Shown: positions 1,824-27,805 of the stretch, piece by piece
How the letters are laid out: every line of letters begins with the position of its first letter
Position numbering within the stretch: the first letter of the stretch is position 1
Assembly (NCBI GenBank): GCA_944389235.1
Contig: CALXLO010000003.1
Span: 1,223-65,222 of the forward strand
Source: an uncultured Alphaproteobacteria bacterium
Lineage (GTDB): Bacteria > Pseudomonadota > Alphaproteobacteria > Rs-D84
Length of the DNA: 64,000 nucleotides
Direction: 5' to 3'
Translations under genes and position numbers: made by a program
The notes under the pieces: generated by a model
Databases searched by the model: none
The model's input: only the letters and a program-made list of their open reading frames with translations
What the model was told of the DNA's origin: nothing

Positions 1824-4460
1824 ATGGCACAAAAATATATATTATCACCCGACCAAGATACAGCTGCAAACCCAACCGAAAATGTATGGGTCCAGGCAAA
1901 CGCCGGCACCGGCAAAACCAGTGTTTTGGTTCAACGATTATTAAGAATTTTATTTCGTACAGATGATTTAGATAATTGCGGAATTTTATGCCTGACATAC
2001 ACCAATGCAGCGGCGGGCGAAATGCGCAACAGAATTTTGGTTGCATTGCGTCAATGGGCAATGCTGAACGACCAAGAATTATCAGAATTATTAGATGGTG
2101 TCGCCATAGAAAAGCCGGTGTCCGCAGATGATTTATTGCACGCACGCAAAATCTTTTTCAAATATATCGATAACCCAGATATATTAAAAATTAAAACAAT
2201 TCATGGATTTTGCGAAGAAATATTGCGTCGATTTCCAATAGAAGCCGGCATATCGCCAGCATGGACATTGGCATCAGATGAAACGCAAAGAACATTATTA
2301 CAAGACGCGTTCAGCAAATTAATTAATACATCAAATAACGAACGCGTCAGTGATGCTTTTGCACATATTGTTGGTCGGGTATCTGAATATTACCTGGACG
2401 ATATGTTACAGATTTTAAGTGCACAATATAAAGATTTTTTCCGTATTGAAAATTATGACAACTATCGCAAATACTTCATTGATACAACGCGAAAATTTCT
2501 TGATTTAGATTCGCCAATACAAACGGAAGTTTCCGATGAAAAATTGGAAAATATTATAAAATCAGTCGCCACAGAAATAAACGATACAAATCAGCCGGCA
2601 AAATACTTGATAGATATTATTAATACAACAAAACAATATATTGATAAAACAATAGATTTTGAAAAATACAAGGGTTTGTATTTGCGGTCAGATGGTGGCA
2701 AAAAGCAAAATGTCGCCAAGAAAGACTATCTGGTCGCAGAACAAGAACGCGTCTATTTGTTAAATCAACGCAATGCAAATATAAATGTTTTTAATGACAC
2801 CGTTGCAATGTTTGATTTGTCTGCGGCGTTTGCAAAAATATATCGCGACATAAAAATCCAACATAATATGTTAGATTTTGAAGATTTAATTTTATATACA
2901 CGCAAATTATTTTCAAACCCAGAAACAATGGGATGGGTTTTGTCGCAATTAAATATCAGACTGGGGCATATTTTAGTTGACGAAGCGCAAGACACAGAAC
3001 CACTGCAATGGGACATTTTGCGCATGCTGTCTGGCGACTTTTTTACAGATGGCGACACTACAAAAACACCACACTCGTTGTTTGTTGTCGGCGACACAAA
3101 ACAATCTATTTATGGATTCCAAGGTGCAGACCCGCGCGCATTCATAGCCAGTCGCGAAATAATAAAACGGCAAATAAAACAAAACATGCGCACAATTCGC
3201 GAAATTCCGTTGGAACAAAGCTTTCGTTCATTGCCACCGATTTTGCGCACAACAGATATGTTTTTTAATGACCCATCTGTTATCGAAATGACAGATTTTG
3301 TTAATAACCCGCACCGCAGTTTTCGCAATGGTACAGATGGACTGGTGGAAATACATAAACTGATATCAAAGCAAACAGACGAACAATCATCTGATGATTA
3401 TTTACATAAAATTGCAGACGATATTCAACAGCTGTTAACCAGTGGTGAATTTTTACCGCACGACATAATGGTACTGGTTCAAAAGCGTGCGCCAATGGCA
3501 CCAAAGCTGGTCAAAGAATTAAAACGACGCAATATACCAGTTGCCGGCAGCGACAGAATTATTTTACCACAATTTCCGGCCATACGCGATCTGTTGAACT
3601 TGATTAGATTTTGCATAAATAATGCAGATGATTATAGTTTATGTTGCGTGTTAAAAAGTCCAATTTTCAGATTGACAGAACATGATATTTTTAATATTTG
3701 CAAAATTAAAAATGATGAAAATCGCATAAAAAAATCAGAAAATAATATTACAAATTTAACAACTGTGTTTGATGTCTTGCAAACTAATATGCCAGATATT
3801 TATAATCGCTTGGCGCAAATAAACCAGTGGTGCAAAACCATGGCACCATATTCATTTTTTACAAAAGTTTTGAACACAAATGATACACGCCGCAGCATGA
3901 TTGCTGCACTGGGGAATCAAATCATAGACCCACTGGAAGAATTTATGACAATATGTTTAGCATACGAACGAACACAAAGTGGAACTATGCAACATTTTTT
4001 GAAATGGTTTATAACCGGTGCCAGCGAAATAAAACGCGATATGGACGCATCATCAGGCGTACGCATTGCCACCATTCACGGCAGCAAAGGTCTGGAAGCA
4101 CGCGTGATATTTTTAATAGATACTGTAAAAGTTCCGTCTGGCGACAGTATACTGCCCATTCCGCCAGAATATTGTCATGCAGAATCAGAATATCCTGTGC
4201 CTTGGTTATGGTCGCCACGCAGTGATACATCTGCGCGTCGTGCAGATGCTGCCAACGCATTAAATCATACCAGAATTGCTGAATATTATCGATTGCTATA
4301 TGTTGCGATGACGCGTGCCCGCGACAGATTATATATATATGGATATACATCAACCAAAAACGCCCCAGAAATTTCATGGCACACACAATTATGGCGCGTA
4401 TTATCACAAAAAACAGGCACACCAAATGACGCAGAAACAATCAGGATTTCAGATGAATAA
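1824..4460 (+). CDS. addA: AddA-type ATP-dependent helicase, helicase portion (878 aa). The UvrD-like SF1 helicase motifs are present.
   Basis: N-terminus VWVQANAGTGKTSVLVQRLLRIL (Walker A; ANAGxGKT is typical of AddA). Also LCLTYTNAAAGEMRNRI, VDEAQDT, VVGDTKQSIYGFQGADP, IATIHGSKGLEARVIFLID and LLYVAMTRARDRLYIYG. Confidence 0.8.
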   Translation: MAQKYILSPDQDTAANPTENVWVQANAGTGKTSVLVQRLLRILFRTDDLDNCGILCLTYTNAAAGEMRNRILVALRQWAMLNDQELSELLDGVAIEKPVSADDLLHARKIFFKYIDNPDILKIKTIHGFCEEILRRFPIEAGISPAWTLASDETQRTLLQDAFSKLINTSNNERVSDAFAHIVGRVSEYYLDDMLQILSAQYKDFFRIENYDNYRKYFIDTTRKFLDLDSPIQTEVSDEKLENIIKSVATEINDTNQPAKYLIDIINTTKQYIDKTIDFEKYKGLYLRSDGGKKQNVAKKDYLVAEQERVYLLNQRNANINVFNDTVAMFDLSAAFAKIYRDIKIQHNMLDFEDLILYTRKLFSNPETMGWVLSQLNIRLGHILVDEAQDTEPLQWDILRMLSGDFFTDGDTTKTPHSLFVVGDTKQSIYGFQGADPRAFIASREIIKRQIKQNMRTIREIPLEQSFRSLPPILRTTDMFFNDPSVIEMTDFVNNPHRSFRNGTDGLVEIHKLISKQTDEQSSDDYLHKIADDIQQLLTSGEFLPHDIMVLVQKRAPMAPKLVKELKRRNIPVAGSDRIILPQFPAIRDLLNLIRFCINNADDYSLCCVLKSPIFRLTEHDIFNICKIKNDENRIKKSENNITNLTTVFDVLQTNMPDIYNRLAQINQWCKTMAPYSFFTKVLNTNDTRRSMIAALGNQIIDPLEEFMTICLAYERTQSGTMQHFLKWFITGASEIKRDMDASSGVRIATIHGSKGLEARVIFLIDTVKVPSGDSILPIPPEYCHAESEYPVPWLWSPRSDTSARRADAANALNHTRIAEYYRLLYVAMTRARDRLYIYGYTSTKNAPEISWHTQLWRVLSQKTGTPNDAETIRISDE

Positions 4461-4896
4461 TAAACTGGCAGATATATTAGCGAATATAACACAATCTAAA
4501 TATGCAACTGACACTGGTCGTCGCATACACCGGCAATTACAACATATTAAAAGTCTGGATGCGACCGCATTAGACAACGATTTGATTCGCAAAATTTCTG
4601 AAAATCCAGAAATTGCAGAATTTTTTACCGCGCAATCTATGACCGAAGTTCCAATCGCCGGCAATATTAATGGTCGCTTTGTCAGCCGTCGCATAGACCG
4701 CATATTAATAAATGATACAACACATGAAATAAAAATATTAGATTATAAAACAGATTCAAATACATCTGAACTGCGCGAAAAATACATCGCCCAAATTATG
4801 GAATATGTTGCATTGGTGCGCGACGCATATCCGGGCTATAATGTACATGGCTATGTACTATGGTTGCATGATTTCAGACTGGAACAAATATCATAA
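4453..4896 (+). CDS. addA: RecB-family PD-(D/E)XK nuclease domain, equivalent to the AddA C-terminal nuclease. It is a separate ORF in the +1 frame that overlaps the helicase stop.
   Basis: The ATG at 4453 overlaps the helicase stop (ATGAATAA, TAA at 4458-4460). The protein MNNKLADILAN...GRRIHRQLQHIK...GRFVSRRIDRILINDTTHEIKILDYKTD...AQIMEYVAL carries the His motif, the D / D-x-K triad and the QxxxY motif of RecB/AddA nucleases. Confidence 0.6.
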   Translation: MNNKLADILANITQSKYATDTGRRIHRQLQHIKSLDATALDNDLIRKISENPEIAEFFTAQSMTEVPIAGNINGRFVSRRIDRILINDTTHEIKILDYKTDSNTSELREKYIAQIMEYVALVRDAYPGYNVHGYVLWLHDFRLEQIS

Positions 4897-18564: not shown

Positions 18565-18638
18565 TGGTGCGGGCGAAGGGAATCGAACCCTCGTCTTCAG
18601 CTTGGGAAGCTGACGTGCTGCCATTATACCACGCCCGC
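18565..18638 (-). tRNA. tRNA-Gly (anticodon CCC)
   Basis: The reverse complement folds as a cloverleaf: acceptor GCGGGCG/CGCCCGC, U8, A14, GG in the D-loop, anticodon stem TCAGC/GCTGA with loop TTCCCAA, T-loop TTCGATT, discriminator A, CCA. Confidence 0.8.
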
Positions 18639-18697
18639 GCGTTGCGTGATTTTATAACACGCGCAAAAAAATGTCCAGTTTTTATTTATTGTGATGT

Positions 18698-19201
18698 TTA
18701 TTTTTTGAATTTTGGAAACAATAACGGTGTTCTTTTTTTATATTCGACATATTCGTCTTTGAAATCATTATACAATCTGGGTTCTTCATATTTTTTTACA
18801 TGCCATACCATATACAATATAAACACAATTGGAACAACCAACGCAGAATATGAATTAAACAAGAATGCTAATCCTATATAAAACACAAATGTACCAAATA
18901 ACATTGGATTCCGCGTGTATTTATATGGACCTTGTACCAGCAGTTTTTTAGTGCGTTCACCTAATGCGACATTAAATCCATCTGTTGGGCATCCGCGACC
19001 AATTTTTACCATGTCTATATTTGACCAAATCATAAAGAACGCGCCTATTAAGGCTAATATCCCGCCAATCACACCGACAACCAGTGAATCCACCGGCAAA
19101 ACAAAATTAACAGCAACAATATACATCAATGCCGGCACCAGCACCAAAAACATCGAAATACCGACAACATATCCAAAAATATTTTTCATAGCAATCACCA
19201 T
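18698..19201 (-). CDS. Membrane methyltransferase of the ICMT/PEMT family
   Basis: Multi-TM protein with a C-terminal GPYKYTRNPMLFG...EEPRLYNDFKDEYVEYKKRTP motif block typical of isoprenylcysteine carboxyl / phospholipid methyltransferases. Confidence 0.6.
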   Translation of the reverse strand: MVIAMKNIFGYVVGISMFLVLVPALMYIVAVNFVLPVDSLVVGVIGGILALIGAFFMIWSNIDMVKIGRGCPTDGFNVALGERTKKLLVQGPYKYTRNPMLFGTFVFYIGLAFLFNSYSALVVPIVFILYMVWHVKKYEEPRLYNDFKDEYVEYKKRTPLLFPKFKK

Positions 19202-19207
19202 AATTGG

Positions 19208-19462
19208 TTATAATATTTTTTGATTCAATTCGCGTTGTATTTTTTCCAGTTTATTTTCTGCGGCACGCAACAATTTTCTGTTTGGATTATTTTTTGCCAA
19301 TGTTTTGCGCAATTGTTCTAATTGTATTAACACCGCAACCGCACCAACATCGCGCGCACGCGAATATAACAGCCCCAACAAACTGTTTAATTCCGCCAAA
19401 CTGATTTCATGGTTTGACGCAAACTTTTCTTGCTGACGAATATATTTTTTATGTTCATTCAT
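19208..19462 (-). CDS. Small helical hypothetical protein
   Basis: 84-aa ORF with coiled-coil-like composition. No recognisable motif. Confidence 0.3.
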   Translation of the reverse strand: MNEHKKYIRQQEKFASNHEISLAELNSLLGLLYSRARDVGAVAVLIQLEQLRKTLAKNNPNRKLLRAAENKLEKIQRELNQKIL

Positions 19463-19525
19463 TGCTTGCCGTCTATATTATACAAGATAAACTAAATACG
19501 GGCTGTTTTCAAGCCCGTATCAAAT

Positions 19526-20503
19526 TTATTTCAATTTTTCGCAATCTGTCAACCACGCATCCAAAGTATCCATTTCTGTGGATTGTGTAATACCAGCATC
19601 ACACAAAGCATTATAAACATTATATAGATTATGTTTTAATGCAATTCCTGGTTTTACCACAGATTTTGCAATATCAACAACTTGTTCTGAATATAAATAG
19701 CACGGTATTTCAGATTCAAAATCTTTCATATAATCATGAACATTTCTTTCTTGTAATACAGTTGCATTTGTAAAGCCCAGCAAGAAATTTTCATTCCACA
19801 TCAATGGTTGCGCAATTAACCCCTTTAATATATCCGTAAATCTGAAACTGACCGTTGTTGGCAAATATAACAATTCAAACAGTTCGCGCCGATATGCTGT
19901 ATTTTGCGTATTAAACGGACAAACACATCCAGATTGTAAAACCAACGGTTCTTTGTCTTGGTCAAAATAACATGGTGTATTATCTGTTAATCTATAAATT
20001 GCATCAACATCTGGGTCGCCGTCTGCCAGTCCTTGCCACACACCGACATGTAAATTTTGATTTTTTATTTCATAAGATGTTTTTTTATTAATATAATTTA
20101 ATGGCAATCCCCGTGGCCAAATTTTGTGTTTCGTAAAAAACTGATATATATTTATAAAACCATCATCTGTTTTGATTAAATTAAAATTGTCATCAAATTC
20201 TGGGAACCCGAAATTATCGTATGGAATATTATCGTCATCAGTATCTATAATAATATCTGCCCCTGCACGCATAGCATATAAATATCCCAACATTTTTCTG
20301 GAATAATGATTAAACGGTAAAGTTTTTTCTAATTCAAATCCGTATGTTTTATCAGCAGATAAAAATATAACATTATCGCAATTGTAATTTTCCGGCGATT
20401 TTTTATCACCAACAACAATGACATTATAATCATTTATCCCAGAAAATTTTTTCACCGCAACAGTTGGTTCAAATATACTGGTTATAACAATGTATTTTTT
20501 CAT
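19526..20503 (-). CDS. Glycosyltransferase-like protein, resembles the DUF288 / STELLO-type GT domain
   Basis: N-terminus MKKYIVITSIFEPT...VIVVGDKKSP and an acidic DTDDDNIP (DxD-like) segment. No signal peptide. Confidence 0.45.
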   Translation of the reverse strand: MKKYIVITSIFEPTVAVKKFSGINDYNVIVVGDKKSPENYNCDNVIFLSADKTYGFELEKTLPFNHYSRKMLGYLYAMRAGADIIIDTDDDNIPYDNFGFPEFDDNFNLIKTDDGFINIYQFFTKHKIWPRGLPLNYINKKTSYEIKNQNLHVGVWQGLADGDPDVDAIYRLTDNTPCYFDQDKEPLVLQSGCVCPFNTQNTAYRRELFELLYLPTTVSFRFTDILKGLIAQPLMWNENFLLGFTNATVLQERNVHDYMKDFESEIPCYLYSEQVVDIAKSVVKPGIALKHNLYNVYNALCDAGITQSTEMDTLDAWLTDCEKLK

Positions 20504-20507
20504 TACT

Positions 20508-21518
20508 CTAACTCCATCTTGACAGTTTTAATGGGTGTATAAACAGCAAATTATCAGGCCAATTTTCCATTAAGTTTGACAGTTTATATTCATATTGTTT
20601 TGACATATCATCTGTCATATCAAAAATAGCATTGCCTGTTTGTCTGTGTTTATTCTTTTCAAATTTTAATTTATCTAATGTTAATAACATACATGTCGGC
20701 ATCGCAATTTCAACAAATACATTCATTGCTGCAAATATGCCTAATAAATTTGTAAAATCATCTATCTTATTATGCGGGACAACCAAGAAATCAGAAACTC
20801 CATACGCCAATGGATACAAAAAATCATCGTTTACCGGGCGACCGGCCCCAGAATTTATCAAACTATTCAACCGATGATTCAACCAATCTGTGTATGACCA
20901 TCCACGCAGTTTTTGATATATGAACCGATGCCAAGAATTACTATAACCACGCGGAAAGAATTTATAATAATTTGTATTATCTGGGGCAAAATATTTTTGC
21001 ATTTCAATAAAAACATTTTTATCTATATTTCTAGAACTGATGCCATGCGCGTCAAATGCACATCTGGCATAATTTATATCGGGTATAAAAGATTTGTATT
21101 CACACCCATTGCCACTTAATACCATTGACCGCAATGACATTATTGTCCACTCACTCCAATAAACTAATTCGCGATATGTTAATGCAGAAATACTGGGGAT
21201 ATAGCCTGTATTGTCATCTAAATTCAAAATTTCTGTTAAATTATATTGATTAATATTTGGATTTAATAATAAATCATCTGCTGCAAAACAGTAATGACTT
21301 GATTCATTGTTTTTATATGTACCCAGTCCTTGACGAATATAGTCATGAAACAAATATGAATTGCCGTATATTTTTGCGACATTTGATTTATGCCCTCTAT
21401 AAAAAGGCATCAAATGAAAAATTTTATCAAATCTGCCGGCATATAAAGATTCTATTCTATCTATATTTGATTCATAATTATGGTTATAAACCACAACCAA
21501 ACTAACTTTATGTTTCAT
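20508..21518 (-). CDS. Hypothetical protein, probable glycan-biosynthesis enzyme (GT-like)
   Basis: 336 aa. Co-oriented and tightly spaced (4-14 nt gaps) with the flanking GT genes. No family recognised. Confidence 0.4.
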   Translation of the reverse strand: MKHKVSLVVVYNHNYESNIDRIESLYAGRFDKIFHLMPFYRGHKSNVAKIYGNSYLFHDYIRQGLGTYKNNESSHYCFAADDLLLNPNINQYNLTEILNLDDNTGYIPSISALTYRELVYWSEWTIMSLRSMVLSGNGCEYKSFIPDINYARCAFDAHGISSRNIDKNVFIEMQKYFAPDNTNYYKFFPRGYSNSWHRFIYQKLRGWSYTDWLNHRLNSLINSGAGRPVNDDFLYPLAYGVSDFLVVPHNKIDDFTNLLGIFAAMNVFVEIAMPTCMLLTLDKLKFEKNKHRQTGNAIFDMTDDMSKQYEYKLSNLMENWPDNLLFIHPLKLSRWS

Positions 21519-21532
21519 GTAATAAAATCCTC

Positions 21533-23143
21533 TCAGACATTTTTAATGAAATTCATTATTTTATTTTTAGCAATTTTGATAGCACTGGTTTGAATTTTAT
21601 GTGTTCTTTCAACACTGCCAAAATCATAGTGTTTTGACAATTCACGCAAATCATATTTATTTACATTTTTACCTATGAGATTTGCAAAGTTTCGATTAGA
21701 CCGCAATGCTCTGAAACCAAATTTATCGTTATGTATTTTTGTCATAAATGTACCAATCATTTCAAATTCGGAAAAGCCACCATATATTAAATCATCATCA
21801 GATATCTGATTCAAAATTGCCCGCCAGAAATCTTTTTCTGATACAGAAAACCTGCCAGCAATCACAGACACCATTTCTTTCATATACGATGTATTCATCA
21901 TCATGTGTTCAACAATATATGTTGTATCCACATTACGCGGATACCCCAGCACTGCTTCCACTGTCTTGTTAAACACATCATCTTTCCAAATTCTGGAATT
22001 ATCATACAGTATCCGGTCGTTATCATCAAAAAAATCAATATGTCGCAGCATTAATGTATCTGCGTCCCAGACCAAATAATTATCAACATCACATTTATAA
22101 CAAAATGCAATTTTCAAGAACTGTTGCAGATACCAACCAATTCTGCTGGGTTTAACATTTCTGTTAATAAAATATTGTTTTATAGCATCATAATTTAATC
22201 CATCTAATAAATCTGATTCATTTATATAAACGATACCGGGCTTGTCAGGATTTTTATTTGATATAACATACAGATTACGATAATCGCAATGTTTCTTTAA
22301 TAAATCAATCGTCATATCCAGATTTTCAAAATCTTTACTGGCGACACATAAAACAACATCAAATACATGCTGTTTAATATTTGTATTTCCGCGCAGCCAT
22401 TCTATACCGCCATATTTTGGATTGTTTTTATCCCGTTGAATAATTTTTATATTATCTTTGAAATCTGGTAAATCCCAAGATTCCGGATATAAATAATTGC
22501 ATGGGATTATCAACGGATTTTTATCCAGCACATATTTATTCAAATGACTTTCATCGTGCCACAGTGCGACAACATTTTTATCTAAATCTGTTTTTATATT
22601 TTTTGAACATGCATGACACAATTTCAAATATGCGTCTGCTGTACCACCGTTCAAGCAACCCTGAACATAAAAACGCCCAGAATTATAGGGTATGTACGCT
22701 GTTGATTGGGGATTTCGGTCATAAGTAAAATCATTAATGTTTTTATTATAAAATCCCGGATGCAATCCCATTGCCAATTCATCATTTTTATCAGATGGCA
22801 GAATTTCTTGTCCAACAAAATCAACAAATTGCATATTTGCATTAAAAAAGAATATATAATCAAACTGCGCCAATTTATCTTCTTGGGTCAAGAACATATC
22901 AAACCGCATCAGTGTATCATACGGCCAGCCTAATTTATCTTGGTAAATTTTTATAACATTATTATCCGTATCGTGTTCTAATTTTTCGTTATCTGTAAAC
23001 AAAAAATAAGTCTTGGGGACATCCGGCAAAAAATATTTTTCAGCAGATTCATAAAAATCGCGCCAAAACACACCATATCTGCCCAGCGCTATATATAATA
23101 TTGCTATTTTTGTATTATTGGAAGCAGTCATAAAAAACCTCAT
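21533..23143 (-). CDS. Two-domain glycosyltransferase. N-terminal GT6 catalytic domain (ABO / alpha-1,3-Gal(NAc) transferase family, bacterial NxN variant), fused to a C-terminal ~290-aa DxD-containing domain.
   Basis: GT6 blocks match vertebrate ABO transferases. IAILYIALGRYGVFWRDFYESAEKYF...YFLFTD aligns with [26 protein letters not shown]...YYVFTD. LHPGFY...FTYDRNPQSTAYIP...GRFYVQGCLNGG...ALWHDESHLNKYVL aligns with LHPGFYGSS..FTYERRPQSQAYIP..GDFYYLGGFFGG..AVWHDESHLNKYLL. The DVD metal motif is replaced by NAN (FFFNANMQF). The C-terminal domain has WDADT and GWYLQQFLK. Confidence 0.8.
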   Translation of the reverse strand: MRFFMTASNNTKIAILYIALGRYGVFWRDFYESAEKYFLPDVPKTYFLFTDNEKLEHDTDNNVIKIYQDKLGWPYDTLMRFDMFLTQEDKLAQFDYIFFFNANMQFVDFVGQEILPSDKNDELAMGLHPGFYNKNINDFTYDRNPQSTAYIPYNSGRFYVQGCLNGGTADAYLKLCHACSKNIKTDLDKNVVALWHDESHLNKYVLDKNPLIIPCNYLYPESWDLPDFKDNIKIIQRDKNNPKYGGIEWLRGNTNIKQHVFDVVLCVASKDFENLDMTIDLLKKHCDYRNLYVISNKNPDKPGIVYINESDLLDGLNYDAIKQYFINRNVKPSRIGWYLQQFLKIAFCYKCDVDNYLVWDADTLMLRHIDFFDDNDRILYDNSRIWKDDVFNKTVEAVLGYPRNVDTTYIVEHMMMNTSYMKEMVSVIAGRFSVSEKDFWRAILNQISDDDLIYGGFSEFEMIGTFMTKIHNDKFGFRALRSNRNFANLIGKNVNKYDLRELSKHYDFGSVERTHKIQTSAIKIAKNKIMNFIKNV

Positions 23144-23190
23144 CTAAATAACAATAAAGATACTTACACAAACATGCCGAAAATTCAATA

Positions 23191-23216
23191 ACAAAAATCC
23201 CCGCACAGGGCGGGGC
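23191..23216 (-). terminator. Terminator after the LysM protein gene
   Basis: On the minus strand: CCCCGCCCTGTGCGGGG hairpin followed by ATTTTTGTTATT. Confidence 0.5.
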
Positions 23217-23220
23217 ATAG

Positions 23221-24417
23221 TTATTTTTCTATCTTACCAGACACAGGTATTTGCAATAACTGCTGGGGGAAAATCAAATCTGGATTTTCAATATTATTTT
23301 TTTCTGCGATGATGCTGAACAGTACCCCACGACGCAAAAAGTTCCGCGCAATAATCCACAAGCAATCACCACGACGAACAGTATAATATGTGTCATCATC
23401 GCCTGTCATTTCTGGCATCGTAAATGTATGTGCAACCTGGGCAACTGTGCGACCATCACCATCATGCAAACGCACCGTCAAATTATATTCACGACCCGGC
23501 ACTAAATCACCGACATCTGCCCCCAGTCCAAAATGCTTGTAATCCGATACACGCGCGACCCCCAGGTATTTATCATCCAGCGATAACGACACACGCAAAC
23601 GCGGCAACGCATCCCCGGATACAACAATTCGTCCGCTGTCTAAATAATCTATTTTTGACACGATTAAATCGTCATCTGACAACAAAGATGGTGCCTGTAA
23701 TAAAGTACTGCCATCATCTGTCATTAACAGTGATACAGAATTTTTATATCCGCGTGGTGAAATGTATATAAAAACATTTTCATTTGATTTAACATCTGGC
23801 GATGCGCCACGCAAAGAAATTGTATAATTACCTGGTTCCAGTGCACGATGTGGCGCATAAACAAATTCGCCGTTTGCATCTGTTCGCCCAGTGGCAACAA
23901 TCGCGCCATTTATTACAATAGAAATGTTTTTATCTGCCATCCAGCGTCCTGCGACAACGATTGTTCCAGCTGGTTCTATGCGCACAATATCAAATGTCGG
24001 CACAGTTATTTCGTCATTTGCATCAGACTTTGTTGCCACTGGTTGTACCACAGGTTCCGGCACAGGCGGCACAACCGCCGGCACTTGGATTGGTCGTGTT
24101 TGCACAAACATAACCCATATTGCGATTACAATAACAATAATTCCGCATAAAATCGGAAACCAATAAGACAAAATTCCGCCGCGACGACGCGTTTCACGCA
24201 CATTTGCATCTGGGGCAGGGACATTAATGTTTTGATTTTCCTGTTTCGGATTCGGGCGCGCAAAAATATTCAAAGATTTCAAAAAACGCCGCGCAAAGTT
24301 GCGTCGATTTTCCATCCATGCGTTTTGCTGGGCAACCGCGTCATTAATCAAATCATCTGTGGACCGTTTGGTTTTTCCAATAGTATTATTATTTGCCATA
24401 TTAATAATCTCCTGCAA
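23221..24417 (-). CDS. LysM peptidoglycan-binding domain protein. N-terminal cytoplasmic segment, one TM helix, a beta-rich periplasmic region, and a C-terminal LysM.
   Basis: TM helix ILSYWFPILCGIIVIVIAIWVMFV. C-terminal YTVRRGDCLWIIARNFLRRGVLFSIIAEKNNIENPDLIFPQQLLQIP is a LysM motif. Confidence 0.7.
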   Translation of the reverse strand: MQEIINMANNNTIGKTKRSTDDLINDAVAQQNAWMENRRNFARRFLKSLNIFARPNPKQENQNINVPAPDANVRETRRRGGILSYWFPILCGIIVIVIAIWVMFVQTRPIQVPAVVPPVPEPVVQPVATKSDANDEITVPTFDIVRIEPAGTIVVAGRWMADKNISIVINGAIVATGRTDANGEFVYAPHRALEPGNYTISLRGASPDVKSNENVFIYISPRGYKNSVSLLMTDDGSTLLQAPSLLSDDDLIVSKIDYLDSGRIVVSGDALPRLRVSLSLDDKYLGVARVSDYKHFGLGADVGDLVPGREYNLTVRLHDGDGRTVAQVAHTFTMPEMTGDDDTYYTVRRGDCLWIIARNFLRRGVLFSIIAEKNNIENPDLIFPQQLLQIPVSGKIEK

Positions 24418-25621: not shown

Positions 25622-26860
25622 TTAATGGCGATATATCTTTGCATTGTCGCGCCCCAACAAATCTCCTAATGTAAATTTACCTTCTTTACTATCTATAAAG
25701 TATGTCTTGGCAGACATATAACAATCTTGTATAGTGCTCTTACCTGCATCAGATGTTGAACCGCCGGGGCATGGATAGGCGGTATTATCATAACAATAAT
25801 ATCCAGCGGGGCAATCTTCATATTGCGCTGTTAATGTACGGTCTAATTCTTCTGTAAATTCAAAAACATCGTCTGCTTCGTATATTTTTCCAGCATCGCA
25901 TCCTGCTGTACATTCCCAGTGCTTAAATTTTTTACCTGCGGGTGTCCAACCTGTAATAATATCTATCACTTTTCTGTTAGTTGAGTTGGAATCATCCCCG
26001 ATATCAAATGTTTGACTTTTTGTATAACCGTTCGTATTTTTATATGTAATCTCAATCTCGTTAACCTTATACTGCGCATACAGCGTAGATGTGCCGCCTA
26101 TAAAAGCCTCTATTGTGTTGCCCTGATAGCTCTCGGATATTTTACCATCTGCATCAATGACTAAATCACCATCAGATGCTTTTGTATAATATCCTGTAAA
26201 TTCTAAATAGTTATGAGTGGGTTGTTTAAAATCGCTGCTTTCAACAGTTTTTGTACTCCAATTACTGCCATTTTTATATCCTGCTTCATATTTATAAGAA
26301 AGCTCTTTATTTATATATTTATCATAATCTGGCGCATGCGTATAAGGCATATTTTTATCTAGATTAATCGTATATGTTGCACCAGTGCAATAGATTCTGG
26401 GCGAAGTAGCCTCACAAGTATTCTTGCTACCTTCCCCCTCGCATTTGTAAGAGGCACCATTACCCACATAATGTTCGTCATAGCTGCCACATGATGCACA
26501 ACCGCTCCCGGCCCAATATTGACCTGTATCACAGGATATTTTCCAAGGACACTGGTCTCCTGTCTGGCCATCTTCTGTAAATGTTACATCAGGAAAATTG
26601 TTAGGTTGTGAACAATCGTATTTTTCACGATTATAACAATAGCTACCTATGGGACAAGTTTCACAATAGGTTATCATAAATTCATACCCATTGGGACACC
26701 CTTTGTCTTTATCATTACACAGGTCGTCATCAGTAATTTCCCGACAAATACCCTCACCATCAGCAGGAGCTCTATCAAAACAACATATATCTATCCTCTC
26801 GGCCATACAATCAGTTATACAACCAAAAACAAACAGAGCAACAAATAGTATTTTTTTCAT
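25622..26860 (-). CDS. Secreted cysteine-rich protein containing Listeria/Bacteroides (InlB B-type) repeats
   Basis: Signal peptide MKKILFVALFVFGCITDCMA. Cys-rich modules CPNGYEFMITYCETCPIGSYCY and CPAGYYCYDNTAYPCPGG. Two repeats end in TLYAQY / TLTAQY with a GWTPAGKKFKHWE core, which is the List_Bact repeat pattern. Confidence 0.6.
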   Translation of the reverse strand: MKKILFVALFVFGCITDCMAERIDICCFDRAPADGEGICREITDDDLCNDKDKGCPNGYEFMITYCETCPIGSYCYNREKYDCSQPNNFPDVTFTEDGQTGDQCPWKISCDTGQYWAGSGCASCGSYDEHYVGNGASYKCEGEGSKNTCEATSPRIYCTGATYTINLDKNMPYTHAPDYDKYINKELSYKYEAGYKNGSNWSTKTVESSDFKQPTHNYLEFTGYYTKASDGDLVIDADGKISESYQGNTIEAFIGGTSTLYAQYKVNEIEITYKNTNGYTKSQTFDIGDDSNSTNRKVIDIITGWTPAGKKFKHWECTAGCDAGKIYEADDVFEFTEELDRTLTAQYEDCPAGYYCYDNTAYPCPGGSTSDAGKSTIQDCYMSAKTYFIDSKEGKFTLGDLLGRDNAKIYRH

Positions 26861-26881
26861 CTCTCTAACTAATCCCAATAA

Positions 26882-27340
26882 CTATCGTTGATATTGTTTG
26901 TTTATTGTCCAGCCGTTTTGTACATACCACAAGCTATCTTCGGGCACCTTTGACGCTTCACCCAACATAAAATTAAAATCACCACGCCCCCGCATCTTGG
27001 AAGAATAATTTATAACTTTTTGAAACACCAGTTCACGATTAATAGATATTGCACTTTCTCGCCAATCTGACCAATCACCTTGTGTATATAAATAAACAGC
27101 TTGTATATCTGGATTTTCAACATAATATTGTATAATATCACTGACTACAAAATCATCTCCTTGCATTCTACCTAAAACATGTACATTATTTGCATCAAAT
27201 AATATATCTACTTCTGTTTTTACCGGTTTAGGCTCCGTGGGGGCAACTTTTTCACATGACGATACAACACTGGCACCCGCCAAACCCAGAATTGGTAAAA
27301 CATGTTTCATTTTATATGGAATAATTTTTTTGAATTTCAT
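26882..27340 (-). CDS. Lipoprotein, tandem paralog 1
   Basis: MKFKKIIPYKMKHVLPILGLAGASVVSSC lipobox. C-terminus WYVQNGWTINKQYQR. Confidence 0.55.
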   Translation of the reverse strand: MKFKKIIPYKMKHVLPILGLAGASVVSSCEKVAPTEPKPVKTEVDILFDANNVHVLGRMQGDDFVVSDIIQYYVENPDIQAVYLYTQGDWSDWRESAISINRELVFQKVINYSSKMRGRGDFNFMLGEASKVPEDSLWYVQNGWTINKQYQR

Positions 27341-27358
27341 TGTATTACCCCCTTTGTT

Positions 27359-27805
27359 TTAACGCTGTTGTTGATTTAATGTCCAACCATGTTTAACAAA
27401 CCATGTGCTGTCATCTGGCACTTTGGATGCTTCACCTGGCATAAACGAGAAATTGCCCCGCCCAAACACTTTTGGTGAATAATTTATTGCTGGTTCCAAA
27501 AATTGATTTCTTAATCTTTGAATATCTGATGAAGTACAAAAAATCCAAGAACCATAATCTGCATTCAGGTAAATTGTGTCTATATATTCTTGGTCTGCAA
27601 ACGATTGAATAAATGGTAATAATGTCGGTAAATATTTTTCAAAATTTTTACCATTGCTATGCAATATATACTCAACTGATGTTGTCGGCACATCAGGTTC
27701 CGTTGGACCGACTTTTTCACATGACGATACAACACCAAGCCCCGCCACGCCCAAAATTGGCAAGATACTCTTTAACTTATACGGCAATATTTTTTTGAAC
27801 TGCAT
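27359..27805 (-). CDS. Lipoprotein, tandem paralog 2
   Basis: MQFKKILPYKLKSILPILGVAGLGVVSSC. The N- and C-termini (WFVKHGWTLNQQQR) are near-identical to paralog 1, with colinear similarity throughout. Confidence 0.55.
   Translation of the reverse strand: MQFKKILPYKLKSILPILGVAGLGVVSSCEKVGPTEPDVPTTSVEYILHSNGKNFEKYLPTLLPFIQSFADQEYIDTIYLNADYGSWIFCTSSDIQRLRNQFLEPAINYSPKVFGRGNFSFMPGEASKVPDDSTWFVKHGWTLNQQQR

Follow-up and report, generated by a model that had tools for sequence, protein, structure and literature searches.

The window analysed here is a stretch of 64,000 nucleotides (nt) from an uncultured alphaproteobacterium of the Rs-D84 lineage (GenBank assembly GCA_944389235.1, contig CALXLO010000003.1, positions 1,223 to 65,222 of the forward strand). 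It carries a minus-strand gene (21533..23131) that encodes a glycosyltransferase (GT) domain of family GT6, the family of the ABO histo-blood-group transferases, fused to a domain of the Pfam family DUF6492. The fusion gene is the first of three minus-strand genes, with gaps of 14 and 4 nt between them. Its open reading frame (ORF) runs without interruption over 21533..23143 and, counted from the first ATG, encodes 536 amino acids (aa). The second ATG, at 23131, has GAGG 6 nt upstream of the start codon and is the start in every database copy and in 12 other assemblies, giving a protein of 532 aa; residue numbers in this text are those of the 536-aa version throughout. The original prediction, made from the letters of the DNA, had described an ABO-like GT6 domain fused to a second domain with a DxD motif, and the motifs that it quoted (AEKYF, YFLFTD, LHPGFY, FFFNANMQF, WDADT and GWYLQQFLK) are all found in the ORF, together with its aligned blocks FTYDRNPQSTAYIP, GRFYVQGCLNGG and ALWHDESHLNKYVL.

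The GT6 catalytic domain occupies aa 8-252 (22388..23122) and the DUF6492 module aa 260-520 (21584..22366), and the two are joined by the 7-residue linker NTNIKQH (22367..22387): GT6 homology ends at aa 252 and the first β-strand of DUF6492 starts at aa 260-261. YGGIEWLRG, just before the linker, has its homologue at the C-terminal end of a stand-alone GT6 encoded in the contig L023 (YGGVDWLRG, where the protein ends WLRGLTDKKQ), so that a complete GT6 lid is tethered straight to the first strand of DUF6492. Such a protein could in principle be imitated by a frameshift near codon 250, or by two neighbouring genes having been joined there during assembly. We found no support for either, and the evidence leaves this explanation hardly conceivable. 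The junction is in frame and contains no stop, and the same uninterrupted 532-aa gene with identical neighbours is present in 12 independent assemblies from varied samples and pipelines, of which two are Logan assemblies and ten are further independent ENA/NCBI assemblies retrieved via the flanking PEMT gene. The cluster P0001, which is 98% identical, has 55 members. Four diverged orthologues (P0002-P0005), 58-62% identical, keep the architecture in different gene contexts, with 61-64% identity in the GT6 half and 54-61% in the C-terminal half. As far as sequence data allow, we therefore reject an artefact; the fusion is real and, judged from these comparisons, under selection. One further relative, P0006, was found on a 2.4-kb ENA contig with a circularly permuted order (C-terminal half of GT6, DUF6492, N-terminal half of GT6); this arrangement is most likely an assembly artefact, from a short contig over a repeat or from a circularised read set.

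The assignment of the N-terminal half to GT6 is secure. Pfam PF03414 (Glyco_transf_6) matches aa 8-241 with 135.3 bits (E=2.6e-39; cutoff 25) and NCBIfam NF041524 scores 307.1 bits (cutoff 250), both above their cutoffs and far beyond what chance would give. Matches to PDB sequences comprise BoGT6a of Bacteroides ovatus (4ayj, E=4e-68), human ABO (~1e-31) and bovine α-1,3-galactosyltransferase (alpha3GT, 1e-24), and a PHROGs search returned only phrog_3317, which is again the GT6 domain. Identity to BoGT6a (PDB 4AYJ, 4CJ8) is 48.8% over 246 residues, and the two share a minimal domain size. Active-site residues, taken from the structure papers on BoGT6a (PMC3516806, PMC3961637), were mapped onto the protein by HMMER alignment. 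Conserved are Y23, W73, R80, N101-A-N103, H128, G130, T140, Y159, W195-H-D-E198, K239 (within R-D-K) and R251; the differences are T10 of BoGT6a to L20, N69 to D76, I228 to Q236, and the donor-selectivity tetrad. N101-A-N103 (22835..22843) takes the place of the metal-binding DxD and aligns with Asn95-Ala-Asn97 of BoGT6a, the N-x-N motif whose role has been described (PMC3961637), in agreement with the earlier reading that NAN replaces DVD and marks the metal-independent bacterial subfamily. The W195-H-D-E198 segment (22550..22561) aligns with donor and acceptor contacts and with the catalytic Glu, which is common to all of GT6 (BoGT6a E192, human A transferase (GTA) E303, alpha3GT E317; PMC3516806). 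The C-terminal lid (22391..22429) contains K239 and R251, aligned to K231 and R243 of BoGT6a, the cationic lid residues that touch the diphosphate; the Lys, likewise GT6-wide (K359 in alpha3GT), stabilises the uridine diphosphate (UDP) leaving group (PMC3961637).

The donor-selectivity tetrad, Q161-G-C163-L (22652..22663), aligns with human positions 266-269. It reads QGCL here, AGGL in BoGT6a, LGGF in GTA, MGAF in the human B transferase (GTB) and HAAI in alpha3GT, and QGC(L/F/I) is kept throughout the closest clade, P0001-P0010, whatever the fusion partner. In the experimental code table of Yamamoto et al. for positions 266-268, QGC placed in the human A transferase gave A activity '-' and B activity '+++++' (PMC5377540 Table 2), and QGC is listed among the bacterial 'B genes' (PMC5377540). 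Because QGC gives pure B activity in the human scaffold and is kept across the clade, UDP-galactose (UDP-Gal) is predicted as the donor, unlike BoGT6a, where the AGGL tetrad goes with UDP-N-acetylgalactosamine (UDP-GalNAc). The α-1,3-Gal or GalNAc product envisaged by the original prediction is narrowed accordingly: Gal, not GalNAc, is predicted from the QGC motif. Acceptor-site residues H128-P-G130 (22754..22762) are of the type that receives 2'-fucosylated acceptors, as the His/Gly pair does in GTA, GTB and BoGT6a, whereas alpha3GT has Gln/Trp (PMC3516806). The product of the GT6 half is thus predicted to be B-like, or α-Gal-like if the acceptor is not fucosylated.

Several points weigh against these assignments of donor and acceptor. 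The QGC rule comes from work on the human scaffold and not on a bacterial enzyme of the N-x-N type, and one bacterial motif misbehaved in that scaffold (PMC5377540). The third acceptor determinant (A7) is Gln236, a residue of intermediate size, where BoGT6a has Ile, GTA and GTB have Ala, and alpha3GT has Trp. A fucosylated acceptor is also unproven in this organism, since tblastn of the 64-kb window with GT11-containing relatives gave no significant match to a GT11 fucosyltransferase. The predicted reaction, transfer from UDP-Gal to Fuc-α-1,2-Gal-β-R in α-1,3 linkage, is that of GTB and of WbnI of Escherichia coli O86, with which the GT6 half shares family, fold, catalytic Glu and a nearly identical W-H-D-E-S-H-L-N-K-Y segment. 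GTB differs in being a metal-dependent (DVD) type II Golgi membrane protein with a stem, and WbnI, a bacterial B-antigen α-1,3-galactosyltransferase, in being a single domain of 234 aa (PMC5377540); the enzyme here is metal-independent by its motif and fused to DUF6492.

The C-terminal half had been described as belonging to an unrecognised family, which is not so: it matches Pfam DUF6492 (PF20102), which has a cutoff of 22.9 bits, at 27.9 bits when the full protein is searched and at 29.4 bits when the domain is searched by itself. The module (aa 260-536) is a separate domain that also occurs as stand-alone proteins of ~290-300 aa. Exhaustive searching with HMMER puts the family at 1,568 representative clusters for E<=1e-3 and at 678 for E<=1e-10, most of them proteins that stand alone. 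Our literature search on DUF6492 found no paper, and its profile had no match at E<=10 among all PDB chain sequences. In an alignment of 85 members, E309 and both Asp of the DxD motif, W359-D360-A-D362-T363 (22055..22069), are present in all 85, E412 and E512 in 98% each, and R484 is Arg in 99% and R or K in every one; H413 is His in 68 (80%) and Asn in 10 (12%). Further conserved motifs are G336-W-Y-x-Q-Q341-F342-L-K344, E412-H413-M and F457-S-E459-x-E461. The protein of the window retains all of the conserved motifs, while its sub-clade deviates at four sites that hardly vary in the family (I for E385, V for Y390, M for T462 and I for Y463).

An AlphaFold2 model of the DUF6492 half, built from the 85-sequence alignment, has a mean local confidence (pLDDT) of 96.7 and a predicted template-modelling score (pTM) of 0.93, and we assign it a GT-A fold with confidence on the strength of this model. 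Foldseek comparison of the model with the PDB placed CpsY of Mycobacterium tuberculosis, a member of the Stealth family, first (E=1.3e-8, template-modelling score (TM) 0.60), with GNPTAB at about 1e-7; the glycosyltransferases followed, GT6 at 4e-6 (TM ~0.5) and GT8 similarly, and the fold matches also include WbbM and the chondroitin polymerase K4CP. The DUF6492 half has the Stealth-type variant of the GT-A fold. We also considered that DUF6492 might be a diverged duplicate of GT6, and rejected this: profile-profile comparison with a 41-sequence GT6 profile gave only a spurious match (P=0.03, 18 columns).

Is DUF6492, then, a glycosyltransferase, or does it transfer sugar phosphates as the Stealth enzymes do? 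In the second case it would attack the β-phosphate of a UDP-sugar, release UMP and place the sugar-1-phosphate on the glycan, and the product would be a galactose-containing phosphoglycan with α-1,3-Gal beside a phosphodiester-linked sugar. By two methods the nearest solved structures are phosphosugar transferases and not glycosyltransferases, which argues for this and weighs against simple sugar transfer; Foldseek is one of them and ranks CpsY ahead of GT6. In addition, hhalign of DUF6492 against a Stealth profile made from four deposited PDB sequences (human and zebrafish GNPTAB constructs, Drosophila GNPT and CpsY) aligned 185 co-linear columns with P=1e-3, where the GT6 profile, serving as control, gave only its spurious 18 columns. 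The Stealth N-D-D magnesium site, which comprises D407/D408 in GNPTAB and N322/D324 in CpsY, falls opposite D360-A-D362, and the proposed general base His956 opposite H413. A conserved candidate can be named for each Stealth catalytic role described for GNPTAB and CpsY (PMC9388126, PMC10668966), namely D362, E412/H413, R484 and E512. Stealth_CR2 is the sole glycan-related family that recurs among weak Pfam matches of DUF6492 members (2 of 85, E=0.022).

Against phosphotransfer stand the hhalign probability of just 22%, and an arginine of Stealth. Arg986 of GNPTAB (R419 of CpsY) is essential, strictly conserved and positioned on the β-phosphate (PMC9388126, PMC10668966), yet where it lies the profile alignment has a gap of 12 residues, so that there is no counterpart in register, and the equivalent loop has an Arg in only 29 of the 85 DUF6492 members; R484 is at another place in the sequence. 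H413 is replaced by Asn in 12% of members. The protein gave no match at E<=1 in a Pfam search for Stealth CR1-CR4. DUF6492 hallmarks Q341, F342, K344, F457 and E461, in the GWYxQQFLK and FSExE motifs, have no Stealth counterpart, and DUF6492 is only 11-12% identical to Stealth proteins such as CpsY, GNPTAB and the Neisseria meningitidis capsule polymerases. About 100 residues past the DxD, DUF6492 has F-S-E-x-E where GT6 has W-H-D-E and Stealth has F-R-S-D, if our sequence-based comparison of these positions is correct. The absence of CR1-CR4, the unmatched Arg986, the variable H413 and the different acidic motif place DUF6492 outside the Stealth family, as a sister GT-A family. The neighbourhood of a GT-A fold does not determine chemistry, and a DxD is common to most GT-A enzymes.

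With Arg986 in a gap, an Arg in only 29 of 85 loops, the His at 80% and an invariant F-S-E-x-E, we favour sugar transfer over phosphotransfer. From these sequence features, the DUF6492 half would be a glycosyltransferase with a confidence that stands near the halfway mark; Stealth-like hexose-1-phosphate transfer is a serious contender of lower probability. Tentatively, and with slightly less weight still, DUF6492 might be a second, unrecognised superfamily of Stealth-related sugar-1-phosphate transferases, and this protein would then be the first case in which one is hard-wired to a blood-group-type GT6. The pair is best read as the bifunctional glycan-building enzyme of the original prediction, with the proviso that its second domain could be something other than an ordinary glycosyltransferase.

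Whatever its chemistry, DUF6492 works together with GT6, since the two are found fused in both orders and also as separate genes of one operon. The order GT6-DUF6492 is represented by six clusters, every one metagenomic. In the reverse fusion, P0259, DUF6492 (aa 4-281) precedes a GT6 domain (aa 283-526) of another lineage, with an MGA tetrad and 43% identity, which marks it as an independent fusion. The operonic arrangement is seen in L023, where the stand-alone DUF6492 that is closest to the C-terminal half (P0241, 50% identical) lies two genes downstream of a stand-alone GT6 of 263 aa with an N-G-N motif, a QAC tetrad and 44% identity. The gene order there (L023, 4339-7922) is GT6, a GT-A-like protein of 276 aa that has a DHD motif but is assigned to no family, DUF6492, and a 346-aa unassigned protein. 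Other fusions of DUF6492 are with GT4, with GT11+GT2 and with FkbM methyltransferases, and a stand-alone copy lies between wzx and a wzy-like gene in an O-antigen or capsule cluster with GT2, GT4, GT10 and a WecA-like initiating enzyme. Orthologues of the fusion invariably have other glycan genes next to them, which encode, in three contexts, a hexapeptide acyltransferase with GT2+GT11 and GT32; GT2, RgpF and GT2; and GT2 with a hexapeptide acyltransferase. With its invariant motifs, its GT-A fold, these fusions and the wzx/wzy-like context, DUF6492 is best read, on present sequence comparisons, as an enzyme of glycan assembly. The GT6 proteins paired with DUF6492 in the fusions and the operon examined have the tetrads QGC, MGA (P0259) and QAC (L023), with no A-type motif (AGG/CGG); QGC and MGA are galactose (B) motifs in the code table, from which QAC is absent (PMC5377540). 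This hints that DUF6492 may be linked specifically to galactose-adding GT6 enzymes.

Fusion as such is common in this branch of GT6, and DUF6492 is a rare partner. The 120 best GT6 clusters include 65 with more than 400 aa, and in 54 the length is 500 aa or above, so that the description of GT6 as a mostly solitary domain in the original prediction is not valid for this branch. Precomputed Pfam partners in these clusters include GT11, GT8, GT2, GT32 (PF04488/PF05704), GT10, GT9, methyltransferases and Wzx-like domains. The closest GT6 relatives (P0007, P0009 and P0010) have 63-66% identity and share QGC. Other bacterial fusions in the search (GT6+GT11, GT8+GT6, GT32+GT6, GT2+GT6+GT11 and GT6+GT10+GT11) resemble the one described here in joining GT6 to the enzyme of a neighbouring step. 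Their partners belong to classified GT families whose linkage can be predicted, for example GT11 making the H-antigen acceptor, whereas the partner in GT6-DUF6492 belongs to an uncharacterised family.

None of the three operon proteins has a signal peptide-like N-terminus, and the fusion protein has no segment of transmembrane grade (maximum Kyte-Doolittle hydropathy over 19 residues (KD19) of 1.01). Bacterial N-x-N GT6 enzymes carry a C-terminal basic-hydrophobic-basic (BHB) membrane-binding tail right after the catalytic domain (PMC3516806), and BoGT6a has such a lipid-binding tail. Here the GT6 domain runs into DUF6492, a whole second enzyme module, and no tail follows it directly. The last 19 residues of the fusion are predicted to be helical, with a net charge of +4 and moderate amphipathicity (hydrophobic moment, muH, of 0.41); the basic C-terminal helix, AIKIAKNKIMNFIKNV (21536..21583), corresponds to helix 262-276 of the model. 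By analogy, this end helix may possibly do the job of the BHB tail in membrane association, and the fusion would then be peripheral on the cytoplasmic membrane face, the site at which lipid-linked glycans are built. The position of DUF6492, where a BHB tail would normally stand (PMC3516806), could also mean that the domain is non-catalytic, a degenerate GT-A module that replaces the tail in acceptor binding, oligomerisation or membrane targeting, and the sub-clade's departures from consensus at E385, Y390, T462 and Y463 would fit. We regard this as very unlikely: E309, Q341, F342, D360, D362, F457, E461, R484 and E512 are retained, stand-alone DUF6492 proteins occur in glycan clusters, and the C-terminal half is about as conserved between orthologues as the GT6 half.

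The fusion gene and the two genes that follow it are bounded by terminator-like hairpins on the minus strand, one at the 5' boundary after an upstream LysM gene (23199..23215) and one at the 3' boundary, 5 nt past the third gene (19495..19521). The second gene (20508..21518, minus strand) encodes a 336-aa protein with a GT-A fold closest to inverting GT31/GT14 and an invariant D81-D82. It has no Pfam or NCBIfam model and no named member among its 58 homologues, and is, from its modelled fold, a candidate for a new glycosyltransferase family. The third gene (19526..20503, minus strand) encodes a 325-aa GT75/STELLO-like GT-A protein, with a Pfam STELLO score of 26.9 bits, just under the cutoff of 27.8, and a match to MtdL (7xpr/7yua) at E=3e-18. 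In alignment to 7yua it retains the MtdL DDD motif, the nucleophilic Arg159, Asp195, Arg257 and Asp260, but has Tyr for Asp87, which with Ser91 belongs to the sugar site, and Gln for the Mn-coordinating His287 (residue roles from PMC9937993). The inactive plant protein AtRGP5 likewise has Tyr at the Asp87 position and has lost His287, and S91Y abolished mutase activity (PMC9937993). Because two of its residues match this inactive paralogue, mutase activity of the third protein appears doubtful from its sequence, and we have downgraded the idea that it supplies a donor as a furanose-forming mutase. Genes 2 and 3 are adjacent again, 4 nt apart, in an unrelated contig without GT6 (L020; gene 3 counterpart at 3769-4752), where the pair is 65% and 41% identical to that of the window.

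The three genes lie in a low-GC block (~18,650-23,250; 26-37% GC against a background of ~42%), which also contains an 84-aa ORF (19208-19462) and a PEMT-like methyltransferase gene (18698-19201) and is abutted by tRNA-Gly(CCC) at 18565-18638. It is fixed in all 12 assemblies of the species examined. Judged by its low GC and its place beside the tRNA gene, it looks like an island gained long ago by horizontal transfer. Around it lie housekeeping genes (PFK, GDH, MFS, S16/RimM/TrmD, L25 and DnaK). Going by the names of the 90% clusters to which neighbouring proteins belong, the host is a gut alphaproteobacterium close to Candidatus Enterousia. A role in defence or as a phage moron was dropped as a reading, as PADLOC gave no match and the PHROGs match was confined to the GT6 domain. 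Upstream of the operon, a gene at 23221-24417 (minus strand) encodes a 392/398-aa protein with a Pro/Val-rich stretch, a C-terminal LysM domain and one strongly hydrophobic segment (KD19 2.97 at ~aa 87); it is probably a peptidoglycan-binding protein anchored in the membrane, and a strong hairpin stands between its gene and the operon. Further upstream (25622-27805, minus strand), a Cys-rich 418-aa protein with a signal-peptide-like N-terminus is encoded together with two small upstream proteins of 152 and 148 aa; none of the three has a Pfam match. The Cys-rich protein is 399 to 422 aa long depending on the assembly, all within one species, a variation that suggests a changeable protein of the surface or a secreted one.

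From the domain identities, the conserved catalytic residues, the fold of the second module, the fusion itself and the genomic coupling, we propose, with belief and doubt about evenly matched for the proposal as a whole, that the protein is an enzyme of two modules by which two adjacent residues are added to a single lipid-linked surface glycan, which would be lipooligosaccharide, O-antigen or capsule. The enzyme would be cytoplasmic and probably membrane-peripheral. Module 1 (aa 8-252), a metal-independent retaining GT6, would transfer Gal from UDP-Gal in α-1,3 linkage onto a β-galactoside; its acceptor pocket is of the 2'-fucosyl-galactose (H-antigen) type, and the product would be blood-group-B-like or α-Gal-like. 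Module 2 (aa 260-520), a putative metal-dependent (D360-x-D362) GT-A transferase using a nucleotide sugar, would add the adjoining sugar. Operon genes 2, a GT31/GT14-like inverting β-glycosyltransferase, and 3, the GT75/STELLO-like protein, may carry out further steps on the same glycan. What is said here of donors and acceptors, of the order in which the modules act, of their place in the cell and of the chemistry of module 2 is predicted from sequence. The window shows no flippase, polymerase, ABC transporter or initiating transferase near the operon, which does not favour the proposal.

The same two modules might instead alternate as a polymerase, in the manner of two-domain capsule and O-antigen polymerases, building a [Gal-X]n or a [Gal-X-P]n chain; this reading fits either chemistry of module 2. 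Two-module polymerases are known, for example the GT-A/TagF-like CslB, Cps1B and Ccs2 (PMC5974469); WbbM and K4CP are among the fold matches, a mere 7 residues tie module 2 to the GT6 lid, and further GT modules are often fused to DUF6492. We consider polymerisation improbable, because no ABC transporter or kps-type export genes lie nearby, here or in the contexts of relatives, because those contexts hold several single glycosyltransferases, as for stepwise assembly of a repeat unit, and because a stand-alone DUF6492 lies in a Wzx/Wzy-type cluster, where Wzy polymerises. CslB, Cps1B and Ccs2 resemble the fusion in combining a GT-A glycosyltransferase and a second transferase for the same polymer in one polypeptide, and some products of this type contain α-Gal-1-phosphate (PMC5974469). 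They differ in that the second domain is TagF-like (GT-B-like), not GT-A/Stealth-like, in the lack of GT6, in their length of 850-1250 aa, in their TPR domains and in being encoded by capsule loci of group 2. All bifunctional glycosyltransferase/hexose-phosphate polymerases described to date have a second domain of the TagF-like kind, and the polymerases of the Stealth type are regarded as having a single domain (PMC5974469).

The GT6 clade to which module 1 belongs is already structurally characterised, and multi-module glycosyltransferases are well known. What is new is the pairing of GT6 with DUF6492, the placing of DUF6492 structurally beside Stealth, and the three-way genomic coupling, as fusions in either order and as separate genes of one operon. 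Blood-group A/B-like and possibly α-Gal-like epitopes are products of bacterial GT6 enzymes, and are thought to influence both the natural antibodies against A, B and Gal and the tolerance between host and microbe. With a predicted B-type GT6 in a gut alphaproteobacterium, an uncultured lineage of commensals would join the organisms from which such antigens may come. For DUF6492, the DxD-containing GT-A fold, the nearness to Stealth and the coupling to GT6 provide a first functional handle. If it carries out glycosyl transfer, it is a candidate for a new CAZy GT family; if phosphotransfer, it would be a new class of phosphoglycan-building enzymes. Should the Stealth-like chemistry apply, a gut commensal would display a host-mimicking galactose epitope on, or interrupted by, a phosphodiester-linked sugar, and the reach of such chemistry (~1,500 representative clusters) would be much wider than has been thought and take in multidomain enzymes.

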